Below are positions 41,020-51,319 of a stretch of DNA of 64,000 nt, one piece after another. The position numbers and the translations under genes were made by a program. Position 1 is the first letter of the stretch, and each line of letters begins with the position of its first letter. Origin of the DNA: Planctomycetota bacterium (GTDB lineage: Bacteria; Planctomycetota; UBA1135); assembly GCA_049609225.1 (NCBI GenBank), contig JBMYYH010000001.1, forward strand, positions 84,373-148,372, read 5' to 3'. Under the pieces are notes generated by a model. The model had not been told where the DNA came from and ran no database searches. It was given only the letters and a program-made list of their open reading frames with translations.

Positions 41020-41575
41020 GTATCGAGTGTAACGGCCGTGCCATTACGCACTCGGCTCCGGGGTCGAACAAGAGCACCTCTGGTTTAGAACCCCTTTGTT
41101 CTCTTAACCAGAGATGCCCAGCCTCCCTACACGAGATGGTCACGGGCCTATCCCTCTGAATGTGCAGTTCCGCTCAAAATGTTCGATCAGGGATCGAGAC
41201 ACGGGATCCCCTTGAGGACCCAGGTGGCGGCAGCCGCCATGATCACGACGACTGCTGCCTGGAGGACGGTGTGCTTGTTCGAACAGCGTCTTCTCCTTTC
41301 CCTTACGCGGGTGTCCGGTAAACGCTGAAGAAAAAACCGCCGTTTCTCCAATTGCCGCGACTCCAACCCCTTGGAGTACACGACTACAGGTTCTGTGAAA
41401 TCCTGTATTTTCAATAGGGCCCTATTTCGATTTGGTTAACTAATTATTTCTGTCGCGATTGCCGCGCCTGGCTCCCGATTGACGCTATCCCGATGTTTCT
41501 CAAGAACTTGTGCGAATCTTCGGAATCGCAAAGACTGTCAAGCACACGCAAATCAGAGGCCTTATCCTCGCCCCC

Positions 41576-42481
41576 ATGCAGACTGGATCCGCACCTTCCG
41601 CCCATCATTACGCGCAACGCGTGATGCGTGTGCTTGTGCACATCCAGCAGAACTTGGATGCCGCGCTGCCCTTAGAGGAGCTTGCACGCATCGCTGGATT
41701 CTCGGCCTATCACTTTCATCGCATCTTTCGCGGCATGGTCGGCGAGTCCGTCAAGCAACACATCCGACGCCTACGCCTGGAACGTGCGGCAGGGCACCTA
41801 AAGCACACCAATCGCACGGTGCTCGAACTCGCACTCGAAGCCGGTTATGAAACGCACGAATCCTTCACCCGTGCGTTCAAGCACGCCTTCGACATCCCGC
41901 CCAGCGCCTTCCGCGATGCGCATCGCCCGCCTCGCATCGAGGCGGCGGTGAATGTCCACCACGGCGATGGCGATTCCCTTCAATTCACACCCCTCGAACA
42001 CAAAGCATTTCAGATGGAAGTCCAAATCAAGGAACTCCCCTCGCGGCACGTCGCATTCCTGCGCCATGTCGGCCCCTATGACCAGGTCGGTACGGCTTGG
42101 GAGCGGCTCTGCGATTGGGCCGCCCGCAACGACCACTTCGGCAAGGACACCCTCATCTTCGGCGCTTCCTACGATGATCCGGATGTCACTCCGGCAGACA
42201 AGCTTCGTTATGAGGCATGTCTTACCGTGGAAGCTTCGGTGCAGGGTGAAGGCGATATCAGCACGCGCGAAGAAGCCGGTGGCACCTTCGCGACCACGAT
42301 CCACGAAGGCCCGTATCAGCAACTCGGCGAAACCTATGCCAAACTCTTCGGTGGTTGGCTGGCGCAGTCGAGCCATAAACCGGCGCAGGAAGCATGCTTG
42401 GAGTTCTACCTCAACGATCCGGAAACCACTGAACCCGACGACCTCCTTACTGAAATCTGCATCCCCCTCAAGGTCCAATGA
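41576..42481 (+). CDS. AraC family transcriptional regulator with a GyrI-like effector domain
   Basis: LEELARIAGFSAYHFHRIFR...ALEAGYETHESFTRAFK, followed by a GyrI-like C-terminal half. Confidence 0.8.
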   Translation: MQTGSAPSAHHYAQRVMRVLVHIQQNLDAALPLEELARIAGFSAYHFHRIFRGMVGESVKQHIRRLRLERAAGHLKHTNRTVLELALEAGYETHESFTRAFKHAFDIPPSAFRDAHRPPRIEAAVNVHHGDGDSLQFTPLEHKAFQMEVQIKELPSRHVAFLRHVGPYDQVGTAWERLCDWAARNDHFGKDTLIFGASYDDPDVTPADKLRYEACLTVEASVQGEGDISTREEAGGTFATTIHEGPYQQLGETYAKLFGGWLAQSSHKPAQEACLEFYLNDPETTEPDDLLTEICIPLKVQ

Positions 42482-43083
42482 AGATCAATCTCGTCAAGGA
42501 ACTCAAAGAGGAGTTCTCTACTGCCAAGAAGTGCAAGCTTCTGGACGTCAGCGATGCGCAATACCTCGCCGTGGATGGCAAGGGAAGTCCTGGCGAGGAT
42601 GCCTTTGCGGATGCCGTCGGAGCGCTTTATGGCATGGCCTATACCATCAAGTTCGCCTGCAAGGATCGGGATGAGGATTTCGTCGTGGGCAAATTGGAGG
42701 CGCTCTATGCCAAGGGAGTGCCGATGGAAGAGTATGTAGCGCGTCCCAAGGAGGAGTGGGAATGGACCATGATGATTCGCATGCCTGAGGTCGTCACGGA
42801 GGCAGATATGGAGCCGGCGCGGGAGGCCTTGCGCAAGAAAGGTAAGACCGAGGACTTCGGCGCAGTGCGCTTGGAGGCCATCGAAGAGGGCCGTTGCGTG
42901 CAGATGTTGCACCTTGGACCTTATGAGGAGGAAGCGGTCACGGGTGCAGCGATGATTGCGTTCTGCGAAGAGCAGGGAGTGCGTCCGCATCGTTGGCATC
43001 ATGAAATCTATATGAGCGATCCACGGCGGGTGCCTGCTGAGAAGTTGAATACCTTGTTGCGCTTCCCAGTGGTCGATGCCTGA
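42478..43083 (+). CDS. GyrI-like small-molecule-binding domain protein
   Basis: [36 protein letters not shown]...YGMAYTIKF...[11 protein letters not shown]. Confidence 0.7.
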
Positions 43084-43504
43084 ACGTCCTCCGTTCCATT
43101 TGGCCTTTCCGGTGCATGATCTTGCGGCGGCACGAGAGTTCTACGGTGCGCTGCTGGGTTGCGCGGAAGGTCGCAGCAGTGCGGAGTGGGTGGACTTCGA
43201 TCTGTACGGTCATCAGATCGTGGCGCACCTCGTGGTTGCGGCGGATGGAGCGCATCTTGCAGGCCACAATCCTGTCGACGGAGAGGCCGTGCCCGTCCCC
43301 CATTTCGGATTAGTCCTGGAGTGGCAAGCTTGGCACCAACTGGCAGAGCGGCTCACTGCAGCCGGCACGGATTTCGTGATCGACCCTTATCTACGCTTTG
43401 AGGGAGAGGTCGGCGAGCAGGCCACCATGTTCCTGCTCGACCCCAGTGGCAATGCCCTGGAGTTCAAGAGTTTCCGCGATCCTTCGCAGTTGTTCGCGAA
43501 TTAG
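43076..43504 (+). CDS. VOC (glyoxalase/bleomycin resistance/dioxygenase) family protein
   Basis: [24 protein letters not shown]...[12 protein letters not shown]...[10 protein letters not shown]. Confidence 0.8.
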
Positions 43505-43521: not shown

Positions 43522-44682
43522 TCAGGATTCCGACCCGCGTTCGCGCGCTTGCTCTTGGCTTTGACGCATGACGGCCAGTGCTGCATGCGTGCAGGCCGAC
43601 AGAATCGCGTTCTCCTCTCCCCACTGGCGCATGAGGGCAAGCACTTGTCGCATCGCCAGCTTGGCATCTGCCTTCGCGGAGTTCTCTGGCATGTCCAGTT
43701 GCTCTTCAATCTGCAAATAGGACCACCGACGCACCTCATGCAGTACCAGAACCCGCTGCTGACTCATGGGCAATGCGTGGAAGTAACGTCCGGCGAGCCC
43801 CATCGCGTGCCTTCCGACGCCGTACCGTTCCAACCAAGTTGCCATGTAGAGATAGGGATTCAGGTGCAGTCCCAGTTTTTCCCAGCGCTCTGTAAACCAA
43901 TCTTGATTCGCCTGCAGGTCCAGGAAATCCAACCCACAGCCAGACCAGACCACCCCATACTGTCGGACAAGCTGACGCTTGATCTGCCCTTCCATTTCCT
44001 GGAGGGTTCTTTGAAACACTCTCTTGGAAGCTTGGGACGCAGCTAACTGGGTCTGCTCTTCGAGATGAAAGATATGCTTGAAGGCGATGGACTTGCGCGT
44101 TTTGTAATCATATTCAGAAAGCACGTGCAAGAACCGACGTAACCAGTTGCGCAAACACTCTTCCGAGACACAAGCGGAGAGCATATAGGATCTGCCGGAA
44201 GACACCAAGGGAGTCGCGACAGCACGTGCTCGAATTCCTGCGTTCTCCAATGCCGTCGCCTGCAACTCGATATTCTCCTTGAGATTGACGATAGTGTCCT
44301 CGCCAAGGAATCCTTGAATCAAATCGACCCTCTTCCGAAAGGACAGGCCCCCCGGAAACCGCGACGGCAAGAGGCTTGCTCCATGACCCAGATTTCGTTC
44401 ATGGAAGGGCTCGTTCCGCAGACAACCGTCGAGGAAACCAAACTTCCCGAGTTGCACCTCCAACTCCGCAAAAAAGCTGCGCAGGATTCCCTTGTTGCGG
44501 AATTCGCGTAGGACCAGCCAAACATCATCGAGGGTCGTTCGCGGGGCGAAGATCTTGGGTTTGGGCTCTCCGAACCACCGCACCAAAGTGCGGTTTCGCG
44601 AATCCAAGCGCACCAACCCTGGCCAAAGCCATTGTGCGAAGGCGGTGATTTCCTGCGGCGAAGGAGTGTGATGGTGGGGCAT
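43522..44682 (-). CDS. Hypothetical protein with only a sigma-70 region-4-like HTH at the C-terminus
   Basis: ALPMSQQRVLVLHEVRRWSYLQIEEQLDMPENSAKADAKLAMRQV resembles region 4. I do not recognise the ~270 aa N-terminal part. Confidence 0.4.
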   Translation of the reverse strand: MPHHHTPSPQEITAFAQWLWPGLVRLDSRNRTLVRWFGEPKPKIFAPRTTLDDVWLVLREFRNKGILRSFFAELEVQLGKFGFLDGCLRNEPFHERNLGHGASLLPSRFPGGLSFRKRVDLIQGFLGEDTIVNLKENIELQATALENAGIRARAVATPLVSSGRSYMLSACVSEECLRNWLRRFLHVLSEYDYKTRKSIAFKHIFHLEEQTQLAASQASKRVFQRTLQEMEGQIKRQLVRQYGVVWSGCGLDFLDLQANQDWFTERWEKLGLHLNPYLYMATWLERYGVGRHAMGLAGRYFHALPMSQQRVLVLHEVRRWSYLQIEEQLDMPENSAKADAKLAMRQVLALMRQWGEENAILSACTHAALAVMRQSQEQARERGSES

Positions 44683-44838: not shown

Positions 44839-45159
44839 TTAGATAGAAACTGCCGCGACCACGGCAGCGCACAGCCCTGAGAGGAGGAAATAGCCTCCCG
44901 AAACCATCATCATTCCCTTGGCCATCTGTTCCTTCTTGAAAATGAGTAGGATGATCGAGGTCACCATAAGGAAAGGGAACTGGACAAAGCCCATGAGGTA
45001 GAAGAGGGCATTAACCACCAGATGGTCATCGACGCCGCCGCCCTCTAGGGTAAGGAAGGTAAAGAACAAGACGATGACCATAAAAACGGCAAGCCCAGCA
45101 CCCTGGCTGAAACCGTCCAGTTTGTTTGCTCTGTCCTTGTCGTTCGGTGGTCGATCCAT
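44839..45159 (-). CDS. Small polytopic membrane protein, paralogue C of a tandem trio
   Basis: 106 aa. Contains GFVQFPFLM...EQMAKG...LLSGLCAAV. The start is set at ATG 45159. Confidence 0.45.
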   Translation of the reverse strand: MDRPPNDKDRANKLDGFSQGAGLAVFMVIVLFFTFLTLEGGGVDDHLVVNALFYLMGFVQFPFLMVTSIILLIFKKEQMAKGMMMVSGGYFLLSGLCAAVVAAVSI

Positions 45160-45173
45160 ACGGCAGTCCCGGG

Positions 45174-45512
45174 TTACATGCTGCTTGCGCAGAGACTGGT
45201 ACCTATCAAGGCTAACAAAAGCAGGAAGGTGGCACCTTTCGCCTGTTCGCGGTTTCCAATACGTAGGCAGCGCCAAATGAAGAGTGGCATATAGAGGAGC
45301 TGGGTCCATCCAACAGCCAGAGCCAGGACCATTCCCATGAAGAAGGTATCCGGCTCCTGCAGGAATAGCATCGAACCTGCCAAGAGAAACAGGCCACCCT
45401 GCACCGCAATCATGAGGAACATGGCGCCTAGGAACCCACTCAAGAAGTTATCGAGATCCTGCTTCGGAGGTTCACCATCCTCTGAAAACTCATCCAATGG
45501 CAGCGCCCGCAT
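45174..45512 (-). CDS. Small polytopic membrane protein, paralogue B
   Basis: 112 aa. Contains GWTQLLYMPLFIWRCLRIGNREQAKG...LIGTSLCASS. Confidence 0.5.
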   Translation of the reverse strand: MRALPLDEFSEDGEPPKQDLDNFLSGFLGAMFLMIAVQGGLFLLAGSMLFLQEPDTFFMGMVLALAVGWTQLLYMPLFIWRCLRIGNREQAKGATFLLLLALIGTSLCASSM

Positions 45513-45837
45513 TGCATAAGCTCGTGAACAGGAAAAGCACGCCTGAGACCCAAAGAACTCCCTTTGCGGCTAATGGCTCCCCCCTTCGGTTTAGGCGCCA
45601 AGCCAATGGGAATAGGTAGAGCAACTGCAGCCATCCGATTTGGAAAAAAAGGACCACGACGAGGATTTCTTCCAGGTTACTGAAATGGAATACGTAGAAG
45701 TCTAGGGTGAAGAATAGAATCGCCAGGACCGGGTGCAGAGTCAGGGCCCAAAATATGGCCTTCTTCACACCGGCGGCAACTGTGCTGGAGTCCATTGGCT
45801 CCGGCTCCATGACACTCTCTCCCCGCTCCTCATTCAT
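45490..45837 (-). CDS. Small polytopic membrane protein, paralogue A
   Basis: 115 aa. Contains GWLQLLYLFPLAWRLNRRGEPLAAKG...LFTSLCNAG. Its ATGA overlaps the radical SAM stop. Confidence 0.5.
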   Translation of the reverse strand: MNEERGESVMEPEPMDSSTVAAGVKKAIFWALTLHPVLAILFFTLDFYVFHFSNLEEILVVVLFFQIGWLQLLYLFPLAWRLNRRGEPLAAKGVLWVSGVLFLFTSLCNAGAAIG

Positions 45838-47273
45838 ACTTCCTCCACCTCCCTCAAGCCGCGCAGTTTCGCCAGGACTGTCCTCTCAAGCTCACCGCGA
45901 TAGAACAGGTTGTAGGTTTCCAAGGGAATGAGGCGGCCATCTTCCGGGTGGACCACATGCACACAACTCTTCTTGATGGAGCGCACATCAAAATCATGTG
46001 CATCGAGGAAACGCATGATCACCACTCGGAAAACACGGTCGTAGCCGAGGTCATCGGGCACTTCGAACTGCGGCAGGCAACAAAGCAGGTCAGCCAGGCT
46101 ATTCGCACTGGAATCGGGGCTGTGTGCCGTCGACAACATGTCGAACAGCTTTTGCTGTAGTCGCGGATCACCCTCGAAGGTGATGGTATTGCGGGAATGA
46201 TCCATCAGCATCTGCGGATCGAAGAGGCCGGTGAGGGGAACCGGGCCCTGTTCCGTCTTCAAGGCATAGGCCATCGCGATGCAATCGGGATGACATGGGA
46301 CCGGCATAATGTCGTCGGGGGTGAAGACATCGGTCTGCGCAAGGATGTTGTTACGCACTTCGGTGAGGATCAGGCGATCGGGGCTTGCCTCATGCAGTGG
46401 AGCCCCATGGCTGAGATCCACACGTCCGGCGTCCTGCATCGGCTGGAAGGTCACGCCGCGGACGGCCGGTTGCTGCATCGCGTAGTCGATGATGCGCCCG
46501 CATTCCTGATCATTCAGCCCCTTCACCAAGGTCACCACCAAGGTCGTGGATAAACCTAGTGCATTGAGACGTTCCAAGGCCTTGGCCCGGACGTCGCGAA
46601 GATCTCCCCCACGCAACTGTCGCAGCGGCTCCTCTTCAAGCGAGTCGAACTGCAGATAGATCTCCAGGCCCGGCATGTATTCCGCCAAACGTTCGGCGAA
46701 CCCAGGCTCCTGCGCAATCCGCAAGCCGTTGGTGTTGATCATCAAATGCCGGATCGGTCGCTCCCGTGCCGCATCCATGATGCGAAAGAACTCCGGATGC
46801 AACGTGGGCTCCCCACCGGATAGTTGCACCACATCCGGTTCACCTTCACTCGCCACGACGGCATCAAGCATCCGCACGATCTTGTCGTAGTCATGAAATC
46901 CACCTGTATGCGGACCGCTCTCGGCATAGCAGACCGGGCAACTCAAGTTGCATCGCTCCCCCAGCTCGATCAAGGTCACGCAGGAATGCTGTTCATGATC
47001 CGGGCACAAGCCGCAGTCATAAGGGCATCCATATTTCACCGGCGTCTGGAAGCTATTCGGCATCTCCGACGGCTTCAGGAAACGCTCTCGCGCCTGCCTG
47101 TAATACGCGACGTCGTCCGCGATGAGGACACGCTCCTTTCCATGCTGCAGGCAATGCTTCTGCATCCATACCTTGTCATCCTGAAACAGGATCTTGGCAT
47201 CGACGCGCTGCAAGCAGGTCGAGCAGATGGATAAGGTGAAGTCGTAGTACTGGTAATCGCGGACGCGGGTCAT
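45834..47273 (-). CDS. Radical SAM enzyme with multiple Cys clusters (architecture like archaeal tetraether lipid synthase Tes/GDGT-MAS)
   Basis: CNLSCPVC (46929-46952), i.e. CxxxCxxC. The N-terminus has CSTC...CLQH, and CPYDCGLCPDHEQHSC precedes the radical SAM core. 479 aa. Confidence 0.8.
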   Translation of the reverse strand: MTRVRDYQYYDFTLSICSTCLQRVDAKILFQDDKVWMQKHCLQHGKERVLIADDVAYYRQARERFLKPSEMPNSFQTPVKYGCPYDCGLCPDHEQHSCVTLIELGERCNLSCPVCYAESGPHTGGFHDYDKIVRMLDAVVASEGEPDVVQLSGGEPTLHPEFFRIMDAARERPIRHLMINTNGLRIAQEPGFAERLAEYMPGLEIYLQFDSLEEEPLRQLRGGDLRDVRAKALERLNALGLSTTLVVTLVKGLNDQECGRIIDYAMQQPAVRGVTFQPMQDAGRVDLSHGAPLHEASPDRLILTEVRNNILAQTDVFTPDDIMPVPCHPDCIAMAYALKTEQGPVPLTGLFDPQMLMDHSRNTITFEGDPRLQQKLFDMLSTAHSPDSSANSLADLLCCLPQFEVPDDLGYDRVFRVVIMRFLDAHDFDVRSIKKSCVHVVHPEDGRLIPLETYNLFYRGELERTVLAKLRGLREVEEV

Positions 47274-48010
47274 ACCGTTGCCTTGGAAACGCGGATGAGA
47301 TCACGCAGAAGAATCACTGCACCGATCAGACACGCCATCTGAATGATACGTAGACCACCGTACACCTCATAGGGTTTCAGGAAGTCGACGAGGAAACGGG
47401 AAACGAGATATCCGAACAGGAAGAGACGAAAACTGTCACCCTCGCGCTGAAAACGACGTGTGGGGTTCTGCAAGTAAGCCTTTAGGGCGAAACCGAAGGC
47501 CACGAGGAACAAGATTTCATAAAGCGGTGCAGGGTGACGTGGAATGCCGTCGCCAAAATCGATGCCGAAGATGGAATCCGTTGGGACACCAAGCGTGTCA
47601 TCGTTCAAACCGGCGGCCAGGCAGCCGATGCGCCCGATAGCCATGCCGATGAGCAGCGGGAAAGTGAACAGGTCACCCGTGCGGGACTGGATGTTGTAGA
47701 TCCTTTTGACGGCCTCCACCACGAACCATCCGCCGAGCAGTGCCCCCACGATGGTTTTCCCCCCAGCCAAGTAAAGCACTCGCTCCAATGGACTGTGGCC
47801 TTCCCAAAAGGCCAGGAACTCCGAAGGCGATGCCAAATGATGCAACAGCTTCGACCCGATGGCCGCACCCAAAACCGCCGCAACCAGGACCGTCGTTCGT
47901 GTGTTGTTCGGGACGGGATCCCCGAGCGTCTTCCGTTGACTGCGATAGACCCTCCACGCCACGAAGTAAGCGAGTCCCTCGAACAGGAGGTGGGTCGCAG
48001 GATGCATCAT
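47270..48010 (-). CDS. Lgt (prolipoprotein diacylglyceryl transferase) family membrane protein, short paralogue
   Basis: 246 aa. Contains GKTIVGALLGGW, GRIGCLAAGLNDDTLG and RHPAPLYEILFL. Its ATGA overlaps the radical SAM start. Confidence 0.8.
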   Translation of the reverse strand: MMHPATHLLFEGLAYFVAWRVYRSQRKTLGDPVPNNTRTTVLVAAVLGAAIGSKLLHHLASPSEFLAFWEGHSPLERVLYLAGGKTIVGALLGGWFVVEAVKRIYNIQSRTGDLFTFPLLIGMAIGRIGCLAAGLNDDTLGVPTDSIFGIDFGDGIPRHPAPLYEILFLVAFGFALKAYLQNPTRRFQREGDSFRLFLFGYLVSRFLVDFLKPYEVYGGLRIIQMACLIGAVILLRDLIRVSKATV

Positions 48011-48037
48011 CCAGCCTAGAGTTTCAGAAGCACGGTC

Positions 48038-49138
48038 TTAGAAATCCATGTCGTCTTCGGCCTCGGCACTATCGACCAGGCCCTGCAGTTCGGACAGGAA
48101 CATATGGACGAAAGGCGTAGCATCCATGAAACCCTCCGCTTCAGGCTGCGGATGGAAATGGACGAGATTGGGGTCTTTCGGCGTTTGCAGGGTTGCGCGG
48201 TAGTTGGCTCGAAGCTGAAAATCGTAGTCCTCCTCAAGACCGTACTCCCTGCCGCGGAAGCTCCAATCGAAATCGACCGCCAGTGGAATGCCGGAATGCG
48301 CATCAAAGCTCATGGAAACGGGATTCCTTTCGATGAAGGAATGGACCATCTCCATGATGGCATCGACTTCTTCTTCGGCCTGCTCGCCCCCCATTTCCTC
48401 CGCGATGAACATTTGGACCATTGCCAGCAGGACGGAATCCTCGCCGGTATCCAAGGTGAACACGGCCTCGACGAGGTCATCCTTCTTGTGGAAGCTGCGG
48501 CAGATGAGATACGGGTTGGAAGTGTTCCAGTAGATCGTTGGGTGGAAGAACGAAACGAAATCGGGTGCGAAGTACCCGTCAGCTGCATCGAAGATCAACC
48601 TGGTGGACTCGGCTTCCGCATCTCCTTCCTCTGCCAAAGCAGAGAGGAAATCTGAACCTAAGTCGAGGTAGGTCTGATAGACCGTTTCGAGTACGTCTTG
48701 CTCCACCTCAACGCGATATCCGTTCTCCACCATCGGAAGAAAGTCTGATTGGACATAGACGGACATCTTTTTGCCATCCATAAGCAGATCGAGATCGAAT
48801 GCACCTGAACCTTCTTCTCTTGCATCCATCTTGATCCATACGGAATGCTGAAGTTCCTCGCCAGAGCGGAATCCGAGATTGCCCTCTGCGGTGAGGTCAC
48901 CCTCGACGCCGAAAATATCATCGGGGCCCTCACTCATACTGATGTAAGCCGCAACCTCATAAGTGAGGTAAAAGGGGATCACCTTACGTTCGACTGCGGC
49001 GGCACACCACTCGGTGTAGGCAGCGTGGCTCTCCGCGACTTCCTTGGAGTCGACGGCTGGAAGAGAAGGCGGGGCTTCCGACTCTTGGGCCGGTGCCATG
49101 GGCATGGCGGTGAGGAGGAGCAGGGATATGGCGAACAT
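48038..49138 (-). CDS. Secreted, very acidic hypothetical protein
   Basis: Signal MFAISLLLLTAMPMAPAQ. I recognise no family. It lies 27 nt upstream of the Lgt-like gene on the same strand. Confidence 0.5.
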   Translation of the reverse strand: MFAISLLLLTAMPMAPAQESEAPPSLPAVDSKEVAESHAAYTEWCAAAVERKVIPFYLTYEVAAYISMSEGPDDIFGVEGDLTAEGNLGFRSGEELQHSVWIKMDAREEGSGAFDLDLLMDGKKMSVYVQSDFLPMVENGYRVEVEQDVLETVYQTYLDLGSDFLSALAEEGDAEAESTRLIFDAADGYFAPDFVSFFHPTIYWNTSNPYLICRSFHKKDDLVEAVFTLDTGEDSVLLAMVQMFIAEEMGGEQAEEEVDAIMEMVHSFIERNPVSMSFDAHSGIPLAVDFDWSFRGREYGLEEDYDFQLRANYRATLQTPKDPNLVHFHPQPEAEGFMDATPFVHMFLSELQGLVDSAEAEDDMDF

Positions 49139-49286
49139 GATGAGATTCTAGAAGTCGAGGCTTTCTTGGCTACCTTATTCATCGAGGGTGTCTTCGAATA
49201 TCCTGCGGAGCAGGCGAAAACTGTTGATGAGGGCTATGGGCAGGGGTTTGGGCATGCATCACACGCCCGCTATTCTGCATCAAGGC

Positions 49287-49622
49287 ATGGCCGCTCCCCC
49301 AACACCTCCTGAACCTCGCAAGCATTCGCTCGACCGTCCTCCCGCTGGCGGCCTTACTCCAGAGAAGCGTGCGGAGTATTGGCGACGCAACCTCAGACTC
49401 GTCTTGGGGCTTTTGCTGATTTGGGCTGCGGTTTCCTTTGGCTGTGGCATTCTGCTGCACCCTTGGCTGGATCAATGGATGTTGCCGGGCAGCGGATTCC
49501 CAATCGGTTTCTGGTTCGCCCAGCAGGGATCGATCTTGGTGTTCATCGTCATCGTGTTCTTCTATGCACATCGCATGAACAAGCTCGATCGCGAGTTCGG
49601 TGCCGAGGAGGATGAAGGATGA
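49287..49622 (+). CDS. DUF4212 (small subunit of a Na/solute symporter)
   Basis: YWRRNLRLVLGLLLIWAAVSFG...FPIGFWFAQQGSILVFIVIVFFYA. It overlaps the symporter start. Confidence 0.75.
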   Translation: MAAPPTPPEPRKHSLDRPPAGGLTPEKRAEYWRRNLRLVLGLLLIWAAVSFGCGILLHPWLDQWMLPGSGFPIGFWFAQQGSILVFIVIVFFYAHRMNKLDREFGAEEDEG

Positions 49623-51319
49623 CGGTCGAGTCCTGGACCTTCGTTCTCATCGGACTATCGTTCGCGCTCTACATCGGCATCGCCATCTGGAGTCGGGCGG
49701 GTAATACGAAAGAGTTCTATGTCGCTGGCGGTGGTGTTTCGCCGATGGCGAACGGATTGGCAACGGCTGCCGACTGGATGAGCGCTGCATCCTTCATTTC
49801 GATGGCCGGTGCGATCTCGTTCCTGGGCTACGATGGCTCGGTTTACCTCATGGGTTGGACTGGCGGCTATGTGCTCCTGGCGCTGCTGCTGGCCCCCTAC
49901 CTGCGCAAGTTCGGCAAATTCACCATCCCGGATTTCGTCGGTGATCGTTACGAATCCTCCACCGCACGACTGGTCGCGGTGATTTGCGCGATCTTCGTTT
50001 CGTTCACGTATGTGAGCGGGCAGATGCAGGGCGTCGGCATCGTGTTATCGCGTTTCCTTGAAGTCGGCACAACTACCGGAGTGCTTATCGGCATGGGCAT
50101 CGTGTTCTTCTACGCGGTACTCGGCGGCATGAAGGGCATCACCTATACGCAGGTGGCGCAGTACTGCGTCTTGATCTTCGCCTACATGGTGCCGGCGATC
50201 TTCCTATCCATTCAGTTGGTCGGCACGCCCATTCCACAACTCGGTCTAGGCAGCGCCCTCGCCGACGGCACTCCACTACTCGAGAAACTCAACGGACTGC
50301 ACGCCGATCTTGGGTTCGCTTCCTACACCCACGGCTCCCGCGCCATGGTGGATGTGCTGTTCATCACGGCTGCCTTGATGGTGGGCACTGCAGGATTGCC
50401 GCATGTGATCGTGCGCTTCTACACGGTCCCCAAAGTGCGCGATGCCCGAAAGAGTGTGGGCTGGGCCTTGGTCTTCATCGCACTGCTCTACACCACGGCT
50501 CCGGCACTTGCTGCCTTCGCACGCACGAACCTGCTGCAGACGGTGAGTGATCAGCCTTATGCAGAGATGCCCGAGTGGTTCAGCAAGTGGGAAGCGACCG
50601 GGCTGGTCGGCTTTGAGGATCACAATGGGGATGGGCTGATTCAATACGTCGGCCCCGATGCGACGATGGCGAATGAGCTGACGGTGCACAAGGACATCAT
50701 GGTCTTGGCCAATCCCGAGATTGCTGGCTTGCCGGATTGGGTCGTGGGCTTGGTTGCTGCAGGTGGATTGGCTGCGGCCTTGTCGACGGCGGCAGGATTG
50801 TTGCTCGTGGTCTCGACGGCAGTCAGCCATGATCTGTTGAAGCGCACCTTCAAGCCGAACATCTCCGAGAAGGGTGAATTACGAGCGGCAAGGATCAGCG
50901 CGGGCGTTGCGGTCTGCATCGCCGGATATTTCGGCATCAACCCACCGGGCTTTGTAGCAGAGGTGGTGGCATTCGCATTCGGATTGGCGGCTTCGTCGTT
51001 CTTCCCGGTGCTGCTCATGGGCATCTTCTCCAAACGCATGAATCGCGCCGGTGCGATCTCGGGCATGGTCTGCGGCATTGGATTCACTGCCGGATACATC
51101 CTTTGGTTCAAGTTCCTGCATCCGGAGATGTCGACGCCAGAGAATTGGTGGTTCGGGATTTCACCCGAGGGCATCGGTTCGCTCGGCATGCTGCTCAACT
51201 TCCTGGTGGCGGGAGTGGTGCACAAGTTGGCGCCGCCGCCGTCGCCCGCGATCCAACAGTTGGTCGAAGACATTCGTGTGCCTAAGGGATCCGGCCCGGC
51301 GCACGAAATCGAGGCGTGA
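49619..51319 (+). CDS. Sodium:solute symporter family permease (VC_2705/ActP-like)
   Basis: 566 aa with about 13 TM helices. Contains EFYVAGGGVSPMANGLATAADWMSAASFISMAG. Confidence 0.85.
   Translation: MTVESWTFVLIGLSFALYIGIAIWSRAGNTKEFYVAGGGVSPMANGLATAADWMSAASFISMAGAISFLGYDGSVYLMGWTGGYVLLALLLAPYLRKFGKFTIPDFVGDRYESSTARLVAVICAIFVSFTYVSGQMQGVGIVLSRFLEVGTTTGVLIGMGIVFFYAVLGGMKGITYTQVAQYCVLIFAYMVPAIFLSIQLVGTPIPQLGLGSALADGTPLLEKLNGLHADLGFASYTHGSRAMVDVLFITAALMVGTAGLPHVIVRFYTVPKVRDARKSVGWALVFIALLYTTAPALAAFARTNLLQTVSDQPYAEMPEWFSKWEATGLVGFEDHNGDGLIQYVGPDATMANELTVHKDIMVLANPEIAGLPDWVVGLVAAGGLAAALSTAAGLLLVVSTAVSHDLLKRTFKPNISEKGELRAARISAGVAVCIAGYFGINPPGFVAEVVAFAFGLAASSFFPVLLMGIFSKRMNRAGAISGMVCGIGFTAGYILWFKFLHPEMSTPENWWFGISPEGIGSLGMLLNFLVAGVVHKLAPPPSPAIQQLVEDIRVPKGSGPAHEIEA

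Follow-up and report, generated by a model that had tools for sequence, protein, structure and literature searches.

A conserved cassette of an Lgt paralog, a Tes-family radical SAM protein and small invariant-cysteine membrane proteins in diverse bacteria

What might a relative of the archaeal tetraether lipid synthase do beside a relative of prolipoprotein diacylglyceryl transferase? The question is raised by a gene cluster in a 64,000-nucleotide stretch of DNA (the window) from a Planctomycetota bacterium (GTDB lineage UBA1135; contig JBMYYH010000001.1 of assembly GCA_049609225.1, positions 84,373 to 148,372). Six open reading frames (ORFs), all on the minus strand, occupy positions 44839-49138 of the window. 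An earlier note on this DNA had described six linked same-strand genes with particular coordinates, overlaps and motifs, and an ORF check bears that description out. Three kinds of product encoded here form the core of a conserved inner-membrane system. These are a paralog of Lgt (47270-48010, 246 amino acids), a cytoplasmic radical S-adenosylmethionine (SAM) protein of the Tes/GDGT-MAS family (45834-47273, 479 amino acids), in which GDGT denotes glycerol dialkyl glycerol tetraether, and at least one small membrane protein with an invariant cysteine. The Lgt-like gene overlaps the radical SAM gene by 4 nucleotides (ATGA), and the radical SAM gene overlaps the first of three small genes in the same way. 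The Lgt-like protein contains the motifs GRIGC and RHPAPLYE, and the radical SAM protein contains CSTC...CLQH, CPYDCGLCPDHEQHSC and CNLSCPVC.

A scan that took one genome from each GTDB species gave at least 595 relatives of the radical SAM protein, and the best 80 loci were analysed; loci collected around such relatives are given L-numbers below. The hosts of these 80 loci belong to Planctomycetota, several classes of Acidobacteriota, Myxococcota, Elusimicrobia, Melainabacteria, Cyanobacteriota, Gemmatimonadota (including Longimicrobium), Bacillota (Paenibacillus, Cohnella, Brevibacillus and Bacillaceae) and Gammaproteobacteria (Rhodanobacteraceae), with a few metagenome-assembled genomes (MAGs) labelled as archaeal. 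Where at least 1.2 kb of upstream DNA is available, an Lgt-like gene lies upstream on the same strand in 59 of 68 loci, which span more than 10 phyla, and the junction with the radical SAM gene is mostly an overlap or a gap of a few bases. Small ORFs with the cysteine motif are present in 54 of the 63 loci for which both flanks are available, against a background of 1.7% for this pattern. The Lgt-like gene and the cysteine protein also tend to be present together or absent together (counts of 50/4/1/8; Fisher p = 1e-6). In the reciprocal direction, all three Lgt-like proteins picked from a search with the Lgt-like protein, one from Telmatobacter sp. DSM 110680 and two from metagenomic contigs, adjoin a radical SAM gene and small cysteine ORFs. 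The same arrangement is found in dozens of genomes that lie far apart phylogenetically, and the linkage of the three genes is far above chance. The pairing of Lgt-like and radical SAM genes that the earlier note had seen at this one locus is conserved across genomes. All-against-all clustering of the ORFs at 85 loci revealed no other recurrent neighbour, such as LspA, Lnt, transporters or proteases.

Several sporadic associations of the cassette were also observed. The sole other neighbour found at more than 10 loci is an ABC-transporter ATPase, which is near the cassette in 12 of the 85 (for example, L055 443-1186, in Bacillaceae). In Archangium lipolyticum, a gene of the FA_hydroxylase family is located directly upstream of the Lgt-like gene, and a DAHP synthase gene adjoins the cassette in Archangium and Paracidobacterium; the recurrence of these genes (L002 6668-7165 and 9799-10872; L037 2766-3860) is too sparse to call. 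Radical SAM and Lgt-like genes are also found together on archaeal-binned contigs, in MAGs assigned to Halobacteriales (L044), Poseidoniales (L070) and Methanobacteriota (L079). The Pfam domains neighbouring the L044 genes are not diagnostic as to whether that contig is archaeal or misbinned. According to one paper, archaea have no identified Lgt homologues (PMC12462473), and Zeng et al. described Tes homologs in haloarchaea that do not produce GDGTs.

Small membrane proteins make up the third conserved component. The earlier note had listed the three in the window as members of the operon, and their recurrence at these loci shows that they are not incidental to it. They are encoded at 45490-45837 (115 amino acids), 45174-45512 (112 amino acids) and 44839-45159 (106 amino acids), the first two genes overlapping by 23 nucleotides and the last two separated by 14. 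The longest ORF for the third gene is 44839-45309 (156 amino acids); its start is likely the ATG at 45159, as in gene calls on an identical contig. The three proteins are paralogs with 29-31% identity and three hydrophobic, presumably transmembrane, segments apiece. Each carries the invariant cysteine in its C-terminal helix: Cys108 of the first (codon 45514-45516) within ...AKGVLWVSGVLFLFTSLCNAGAAIG, Cys108 of the second (45189-45191) within ...AKGATFLLLLALIGTSLCASSM and Cys97 of the third (44869-44871) within ...AKGMMMVSGGYFLLSGLCAAVVAAVSI.

Proteins of this kind, with a C-terminal cysteine (type A), were found at 43 loci by using a hidden Markov model built from ORFs that follow the radical SAM gene; Archangium and another genome also have such a protein encoded directly after that gene. 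Type A genes occur as three tandem copies in the window, L025 and L029, and as two in L014, L015 and L086. Type B proteins are found in Acidobacteriaceae, Thermoanaerobaculia and relatives, where one to five tandem small genes lie between the Lgt-like and radical SAM genes. They have an N-terminal signal-anchor with motifs of the SLGLCG, SFGLCG or ATSCFGF type. Tandem copies of small proteins (two to five) occur in several lineages. Type A and type B sequences cannot be aligned with one another. The cysteine is kept in all 56 type A and all 27 type B sequences, four of which were re-aligned by hand. The three window paralogs were also used as a context-blind profile to search 1.84 billion representatives, which yielded 74 matches, one of them a repetitive false positive. 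All 73 true matches have [KR]G, approximately 14 uncharged residues and then a cysteine near the C terminus, and the two that were traced to contigs are both encoded directly after a radical SAM gene.

In both types a positively charged segment precedes the cysteine-bearing helix, and the distance from the cysteine back to the nearest basic residue is most commonly 16 residues. By the positive-inside rule, the helix is predicted to run from inside to outside, which would place the cysteine toward the outer leaflet, the side toward which the active site of Lgt lies (PMC4728403). As in lipoproteins, basic residues are generally followed by a hydrophobic stretch of roughly 15 residues, by small residues and then by the cysteine. 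The immediate context of the cysteine (TSLC, TSLC and SGLC in the window) is lipobox-like, with leucine frequent at position -1, but mostly non-canonical: the canonical lipobox [LVI][ASTVI][GAS]C is present in 8 of 55 type A sequences, 0 of 24 type B sequences and 0 of 68 representatives. The small proteins also lack an N-terminal signal peptide with a canonical lipobox, and no Pfam or NCBIfam model matched them.

Two further kinds of protein were observed near or in place of these small proteins. In some Acidobacteriota, the N-terminal helix with the cysteine motif (LLLLSLCAAGGGL or LLLALCFGMLGN) begins a polytopic membrane protein of approximately 280-330 amino acids rather than one of about 100 (L056 2883-3827 and 3876-4856; L061 4161-4994; L073 4121-4954), which would be a third architecture of the presumed acceptor. 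Several Acidobacteriaceae loci have a fourth gene between the small cysteine protein and the radical SAM protein (L016 4426-4995, L054 4365-4913, L057 4386-4976 and L091 6408-6959). Its product, of approximately 185 amino acids, has a canonical-looking lipoprotein signal (MLRSKLLAVAAVLAILACGACF, MLHKKLFTLACAIAVVAMGACF) and may be a lineage-specific lipoprotein partner.

The radical SAM protein shares homology over its full length with Tes/GDGT-MAS (MJ0619; PDB 7TOL and 7TOM). Among solved structures its sole strong match is 7TOL, from Methanocaldococcus jannaschii (E 1.7e-64, residues 12-466), and Pfam detects Zn_ribbon_HMPTM (66 bits) and Radical_SAM (88 bits). Invariant among 24 homologues are a rubredoxin-like set, C17-x2-C20-x20-C41-x2-H44; the N-terminal auxiliary cluster motif C83-x3-C87-x2-C90, together with H93 and H96; the radical SAM motif C108-x3-C112-x2-C115; and the C-terminal cysteines C327, C398, C399 and C437. 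The archaeal enzyme shares the CX3CX2C motif and the N-terminal auxiliary C-x3-C-x2-C with histidine, and the spacing of the rubredoxin-like set is identical to that of C9X2C12X20C33X2H36, one of the cofactor motifs of GDGT-MAS (PMC9433317). The nearly invariant M420 aligns with the labile Met439 of GDGT-MAS, and the cysteine beside Met439 aligns with an isoleucine. Unlike those of GDGT-MAS, the C-terminal cluster cysteines are differently placed, the hosts are bacterial and the gene is linked to an Lgt paralog and cysteine-motif proteins. To our knowledge, bacteria lack archaeol.

The earlier note's assignment to the Tes/GDGT-MAS family therefore holds for the homology and the metal motifs, but not for equivalog status, as the protein scores below the cut-off for Tes. 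Against the NCBIfam Tes model (NF045702, cut-off 450 bits) it reaches 253 bits, with the match restricted to the N-terminal two thirds, and four relatives (from Paenibacillus, Acidobacteriaceae, Rhodanobacter and Neobacillus) reach 265-299 bits. Its best NCBIfam match, nearly full length, is TrsS (NF045646), at 300.6 bits, with 308-337 bits for the same relatives and a cut-off of 490 bits; thus, every family member scored is below that threshold, and no selenocysteine is evident. In the literature that we found, TrsS appears as a table entry only. Membership in either the Tes or the TrsS equivalog is ruled out by these sub-threshold scores of five family members. Therefore, the protein is best described, by sequence, as a Tes-superfamily member in a clade without a curated model, a relative of Tes and not an equivalog.

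The names given to these proteins in databases offer a different function. The Pfam name Zn_ribbon_HMPTM and the JGI label '7,8-dihydro-6-hydroxymethylpterin dimethyltransferase' for homologues suggest a pterin methyltransferase with no link to lipids. This idea is hardly credible. The conserved partners are membrane proteins, and as far as we know most host taxa, Bacillales included, do not make methanopterin. Moreover, Lloyd et al. did not corroborate the pterin methyltransferase activity of MJ0619, which they showed to be GDGT-MAS (PMC9433317), and the 'HMPTM' label is obsolete because that activity could not be reproduced.

Tandem, divergent small ORFs with one invariant motif beside a radical SAM gene also resemble the loci of ribosomally synthesized and post-translationally modified peptides (RiPPs), and the core of the radical SAM protein weakly matches sactipeptide and ranthipeptide maturases. 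The small proteins might thus be precursors on which the radical SAM enzyme acts directly, for instance by cross-linking through a thioether or C-C bond at the cysteine or close to it, with the Lgt paralog adding a lipid or serving as a membrane scaffold or exporter. We regard such RiPP-like chemistry as improbable. SPASM, sactipeptide and ranthipeptide maturase models score 30-55 bits and are confined to the generic radical SAM core (approximately residues 95-290), whereas the kinship to the lipid enzyme 7TOL extends over the full length, including the C-terminal half. Clustering of the 85 loci revealed no conserved protease, transporter or leader-like region nearby. In addition, the substrates would be polytopic membrane proteins of about 100 amino acids, whose cysteine is predicted to face the outer leaflet, away from a cytoplasmic enzyme.

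The Lgt-like protein belongs to the Lgt family by domain and by predicted fold. Pfam LGT (PF01790) matches at 87 bits, against a cut-off of 24.9 bits. The AlphaFold2 model, with a mean predicted local distance difference test score (pLDDT) of 92, has one significant Foldseek match in the PDB, 5AZB (Escherichia coli Lgt; E 1.5e-6, template modeling scores 0.58/0.52), and supports a seven-transmembrane Lgt fold. On the NCBIfam Lgt models, however, the protein is far under the cut-offs (21-47 bits, against 119-558; for example, 38.5 against 118.9 for TIGR00544 and 47 against 334 for NF000778), and other members of its family are also below them, at 23-57 bits.

When 66 members of the family are aligned to E. 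coli Lgt (from NC_000913), G142, R143 (100%), G145, E202 (in the YE of RHPxQLYE), Y235 (98%) and R239 (100%) are retained, and E243 is conservatively replaced by aspartate in 83%. Other positions differ: Y26 becomes glutamate (97%), H103 valine (89%), N146 cysteine (100%, giving the GRIGC motif) and E151 leucine (79%), and G154 is deleted along with most of the periplasmic head domain (approximately 15-30 residues). In E. coli Lgt, R143 and R239 belong to the catalytic, second phosphatidylglycerol site, Y26 and E151 are in the first, substrate-selecting site, and mutants at Y26, H103 and E151 are inactive (PMC4728403). The catalytic pocket thus appears to be preserved and the donor filter and head domain remodelled; on this alignment, the protein is not a housekeeping Lgt but a paralog whose specificity, or possibly chemistry, has changed. 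A further difference from E. coli Lgt is that the presumed acceptor motif is not canonical and is part of polytopic proteins, being C-terminal in one of the two types. The earlier note had called the protein an Lgt-family transferase. The domain and the fold agree with the family, but with essential residues lost and scores below the equivalog cut-offs, ordinary Lgt chemistry is not to be assumed. No housekeeping lgt was found elsewhere in the 64-kb window.

How might the three components act together? We tentatively favour, at somewhat less than even confidence, a sequence in which the Lgt paralog lipidates the cysteine of the small protein and the Tes-like enzyme then couples the acyl tails; we infer the lipidation, its donor, the order of the steps and the product. 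In this sequence, the small proteins would serve as dedicated acceptors encoded beside their enzymes, with the cysteine some 16 residues beyond the cytoplasmic end of a helix that runs from inside to outside. The context of the cysteine is lipobox-like but mostly non-canonical, so these proteins would be unlikely substrates of the housekeeping Lgt and LspA. The Lgt paralog, with R143, E202, Y235 and R239 in its pocket, would move a diacylglyceryl group from a membrane phospholipid to the cysteine thiol. By using a 5'-deoxyadenosyl radical, along with its C-terminal auxiliary cluster, the Tes-like enzyme could then form C-C bonds between the termini of protein-bound acyl chains, which are probably iso-branched. 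The coupled chains might belong to one anchor, which would give a macrocycle, or to two; alternatively, a chain might be joined to a phospholipid in the opposite leaflet. The outcome would be a protein-tethered macrocyclic or membrane-spanning lipid. All of these findings are compatible with the earlier note's suggestion of a module dedicated to tailoring lipids or lipoproteins, and the lipobox-like invariant cysteine strengthens that suggestion. In its boldest form, the proposal amounts to a new kind of protein lipidation, in which an internal, membrane-embedded cysteine is S-diacylglycerylated and the tails are welded into a macrocyclic or bilayer-spanning tethered lipid; we consider this stronger claim doubtful but worth stating.

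Several observations weigh against this sequence of lipidation and coupling. The radical SAM protein is predicted to be cytoplasmic and the cysteine to be near the outer leaflet, and the access of the enzyme to the tails is plausible by argument alone. The topology of the small proteins itself derives from the positive-inside rule, and the roles of all three proteins are read from sequence, context and models. With Y26, H103, E151 and N146 lost, the Lgt paralog may be a non-transferase or may use another donor or acceptor. The C-terminal auxiliary-cluster cysteines of the radical SAM protein, placed unlike those of GDGT-MAS, may point to chemistry other than tail-to-tail coupling. Alternatively, the invariant cysteine could have a structural role, bind a metal or take part in redox chemistry. 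Also, approximately 10-15% of the radical SAM loci lack both partners within 5 kb.

The membrane-spanning lipids of Acidobacteria suggest another role for the cassette. The Tes-like enzyme might couple the iso-branched tails of free phospholipids to make iso-diabolic acid or lipids of the branched GDGT (brGDGT) type, with the Lgt paralog and the small cysteine protein non-catalytic or accessory, docking the soluble enzyme or presenting lipids to it. We think such a free-lipid synthase possible, although rather unlikely. Bacillales, Rhodanobacteraceae, Myxococcota and Acidobacteriota, to which many hosts belong, are rich in iso-branched fatty acids such as iso-C15:0, whose terminus resembles that of phytanyl chains. 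The cassette is common in subdivisions 1 and 3 of Acidobacteriota, and the loss of Lgt-essential residues would suit a lipid-binding protein that is not a transferase. Bacterial Tes homologs have been proposed to be synthases of brGDGTs or membrane-spanning lipids (Zeng et al., PMC8941075; PMC11868695), GDGT-MAS binds ester-linked phospholipids (PMC13274423), and Acidobacteria without Mss make iso-diabolic acid aerobically (PMC13159169).

The distribution of Tes homologs, however, matches that of such lipids poorly: they are reported in 3 of 14 acidobacteria with iso-diabolic acid and in none of the producers of diabolic acid, under stringent criteria that might miss the clade of the radical SAM protein described here (PMC13159169). 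A free-lipid synthase would also leave unexplained the invariant cysteine at a fixed depth and the recurrent tandem amplification of the small genes, and the retained pocket of R143, Y235 and R239 argues for a working active site in the Lgt paralog. Furthermore, we know of no membrane-spanning lipids in Paenibacillus, Bacillaceae or Rhodanobacteraceae, which are aerobic hosts of the cassette.

The lipidation and coupling that we favour would itself have a bearing on the acidobacterial lipids. To free iso-diabolic acid from Acidobacteria, the biomass or the Bligh-Dyer residue has to be hydrolysed (PMC13274423). This fits a protein-bound pool, which could be part of the source of the acid released in this way. 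The small protein is unlikely to carry all of it, given a reported abundance of 20-40% of fatty acids.

The enzyme families in the cassette are known, and what is new is the three-part combination and the class of invariant-cysteine small proteins. The earlier note knew of no characterised system with this gene set, and literature searches (tetraether synthase with diacylglyceryl transferase; Lgt paralog with radical SAM and lipobox) found no paper that describes one. The closest precedents are the bacterial Tes homologs of Zeng et al. (2022) and of Black Sea MAGs. They occur in the same phyla (Acidobacteria, Proteobacteria and Planctomycetota), and by a sequence threshold of E < 1e-50 to archaeal Tes the family described here would belong among them, but they were treated there as stand-alone candidate brGDGT synthases (PMC8941075, PMC11868695). 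Neither the Lgt paralog nor the cysteine-motif proteins are mentioned in any of the papers searched. The Tes homolog of Solibacter usitatus is 40% identical to MA_1486. A 2026 review still lists bacterial Tes homologs as bioinformatic detections only. Mss of Thermotoga and Thermoanaerobacter, compared here by its description only, is likewise a radical SAM enzyme, presumed to join acyl tails, and a remote relative of Tes. In contrast, it belongs to a different family, comes from anaerobes and was expressed alone in E. coli without partner genes (PMC13159169).

These comparisons matter because bacterial Tes homologs have been repeatedly invoked as the makers of brGDGTs, which serve as paleoclimate biomarkers, and yet their distribution agrees poorly with that of the known producers of membrane-spanning lipids. 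The majority of these homologs appear to be tied to an Lgt paralog and cysteine-motif proteins, and if so, the question of their function becomes concrete and testable. The cassette comprises three genes, provides a defined cysteine site for mass spectrometry and is present in many cultivable aerobic hosts, including Paenibacillus, Heyndrickxia, Neobacillus, Oleiagrimonas, Paracidobacterium, Archangium and Telmatobacter. For annotation, it implies that thousands of database entries named 'prolipoprotein diacylglyceryl transferase' are not housekeeping Lgt. Lipidation followed by coupling, if true, would be a new post-translational modification and a new bacterial use of radical Csp3-Csp3 coupling, and a protein-bound pool, if it exists, would be relevant to the question of an aerobic origin of brGDGT-type lipids.

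Does the conserved system extend to the remaining gene of the cluster? The acidic secreted protein (48038-49138, minus strand, 366 amino acids) is encoded 27 nucleotides upstream of the Lgt-like gene. It has an isoelectric point of 4.07, 72 aspartate and glutamate residues against 19 lysine and arginine residues, and an N-terminal hydrophobic leader that ends in APAQE, and it has no Pfam or NCBIfam match. The common strand, the short gap and the retention of synteny in L084, the closest relative of the window locus, are consistent with all six genes acting as one functional unit, as their grouping in the earlier note would have it. We give such a unit little credence, and as a general feature it is largely refuted. 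In 5.8 billion sequences the acidic protein has one homologue besides itself, the ortholog in L084. With 56% identity to that ortholog, it diverges faster than the Lgt-like protein (74%) and the radical SAM protein (89%). It is missing at L085, L086, L002, L003 and all distant loci examined, so that L084 is the only other locus examined that has it; the loci without it include those whose radical SAM protein is 77% and 70% identical to that of the window. The single homologue and the absence at related loci rule it out as a core component. It is, judging by these sequences, a fast-evolving, lineage-specific orphan outside the conserved core, and it is probably co-transcribed with the module in this lineage. 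An AlphaFold2 model made from a two-sequence alignment is unusable (pLDDT 41.7). A conserved acidic C-terminal tail with the ending E(D/E)DMDF (48038-48070) is common to the protein and its sole homologue, and much else has diverged.

The limits of the transcription unit were examined by consensus scans. A sigma-70-like promoter match (49145-49172, minus strand) lies just upstream of the acidic protein gene, but one site against 2.7 expected in shuffled sequences is not significant. At the other end, a terminator-like hairpin (44849-44868, minus strand) overlaps the 3' end of the third small gene, and a gap of 156 nucleotides separates that gene from the next one downstream. The hairpin and gap together are weak evidence for a possible operon end.

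Several genes flank the cluster. The gene after the 156-nucleotide gap (43522-44682, minus strand) encodes a basic protein of 386 amino acids whose only match is a sub-threshold one to sigma-70 region 4. It is syntenic in L084 and not elsewhere, and it may encode a lineage-specific regulator. Farther downstream, on the opposite strand, positions 41510-43504 encode an AraC/GyrI-like regulator, a GyrI-like protein and a glyoxalase-family protein; these genes are also syntenic with L084 and appear to be unrelated to the module. On the other side, a divergent gene pair (49188-51319, plus strand) begins approximately 50 nucleotides from the start of the acidic protein gene. It encodes an ActP-like transporter pair, composed of a DUF4212/sodium:solute symporter small subunit and a protein of 566 amino acids, and the L084 ortholog of the latter carries the Pfam domain SSF.

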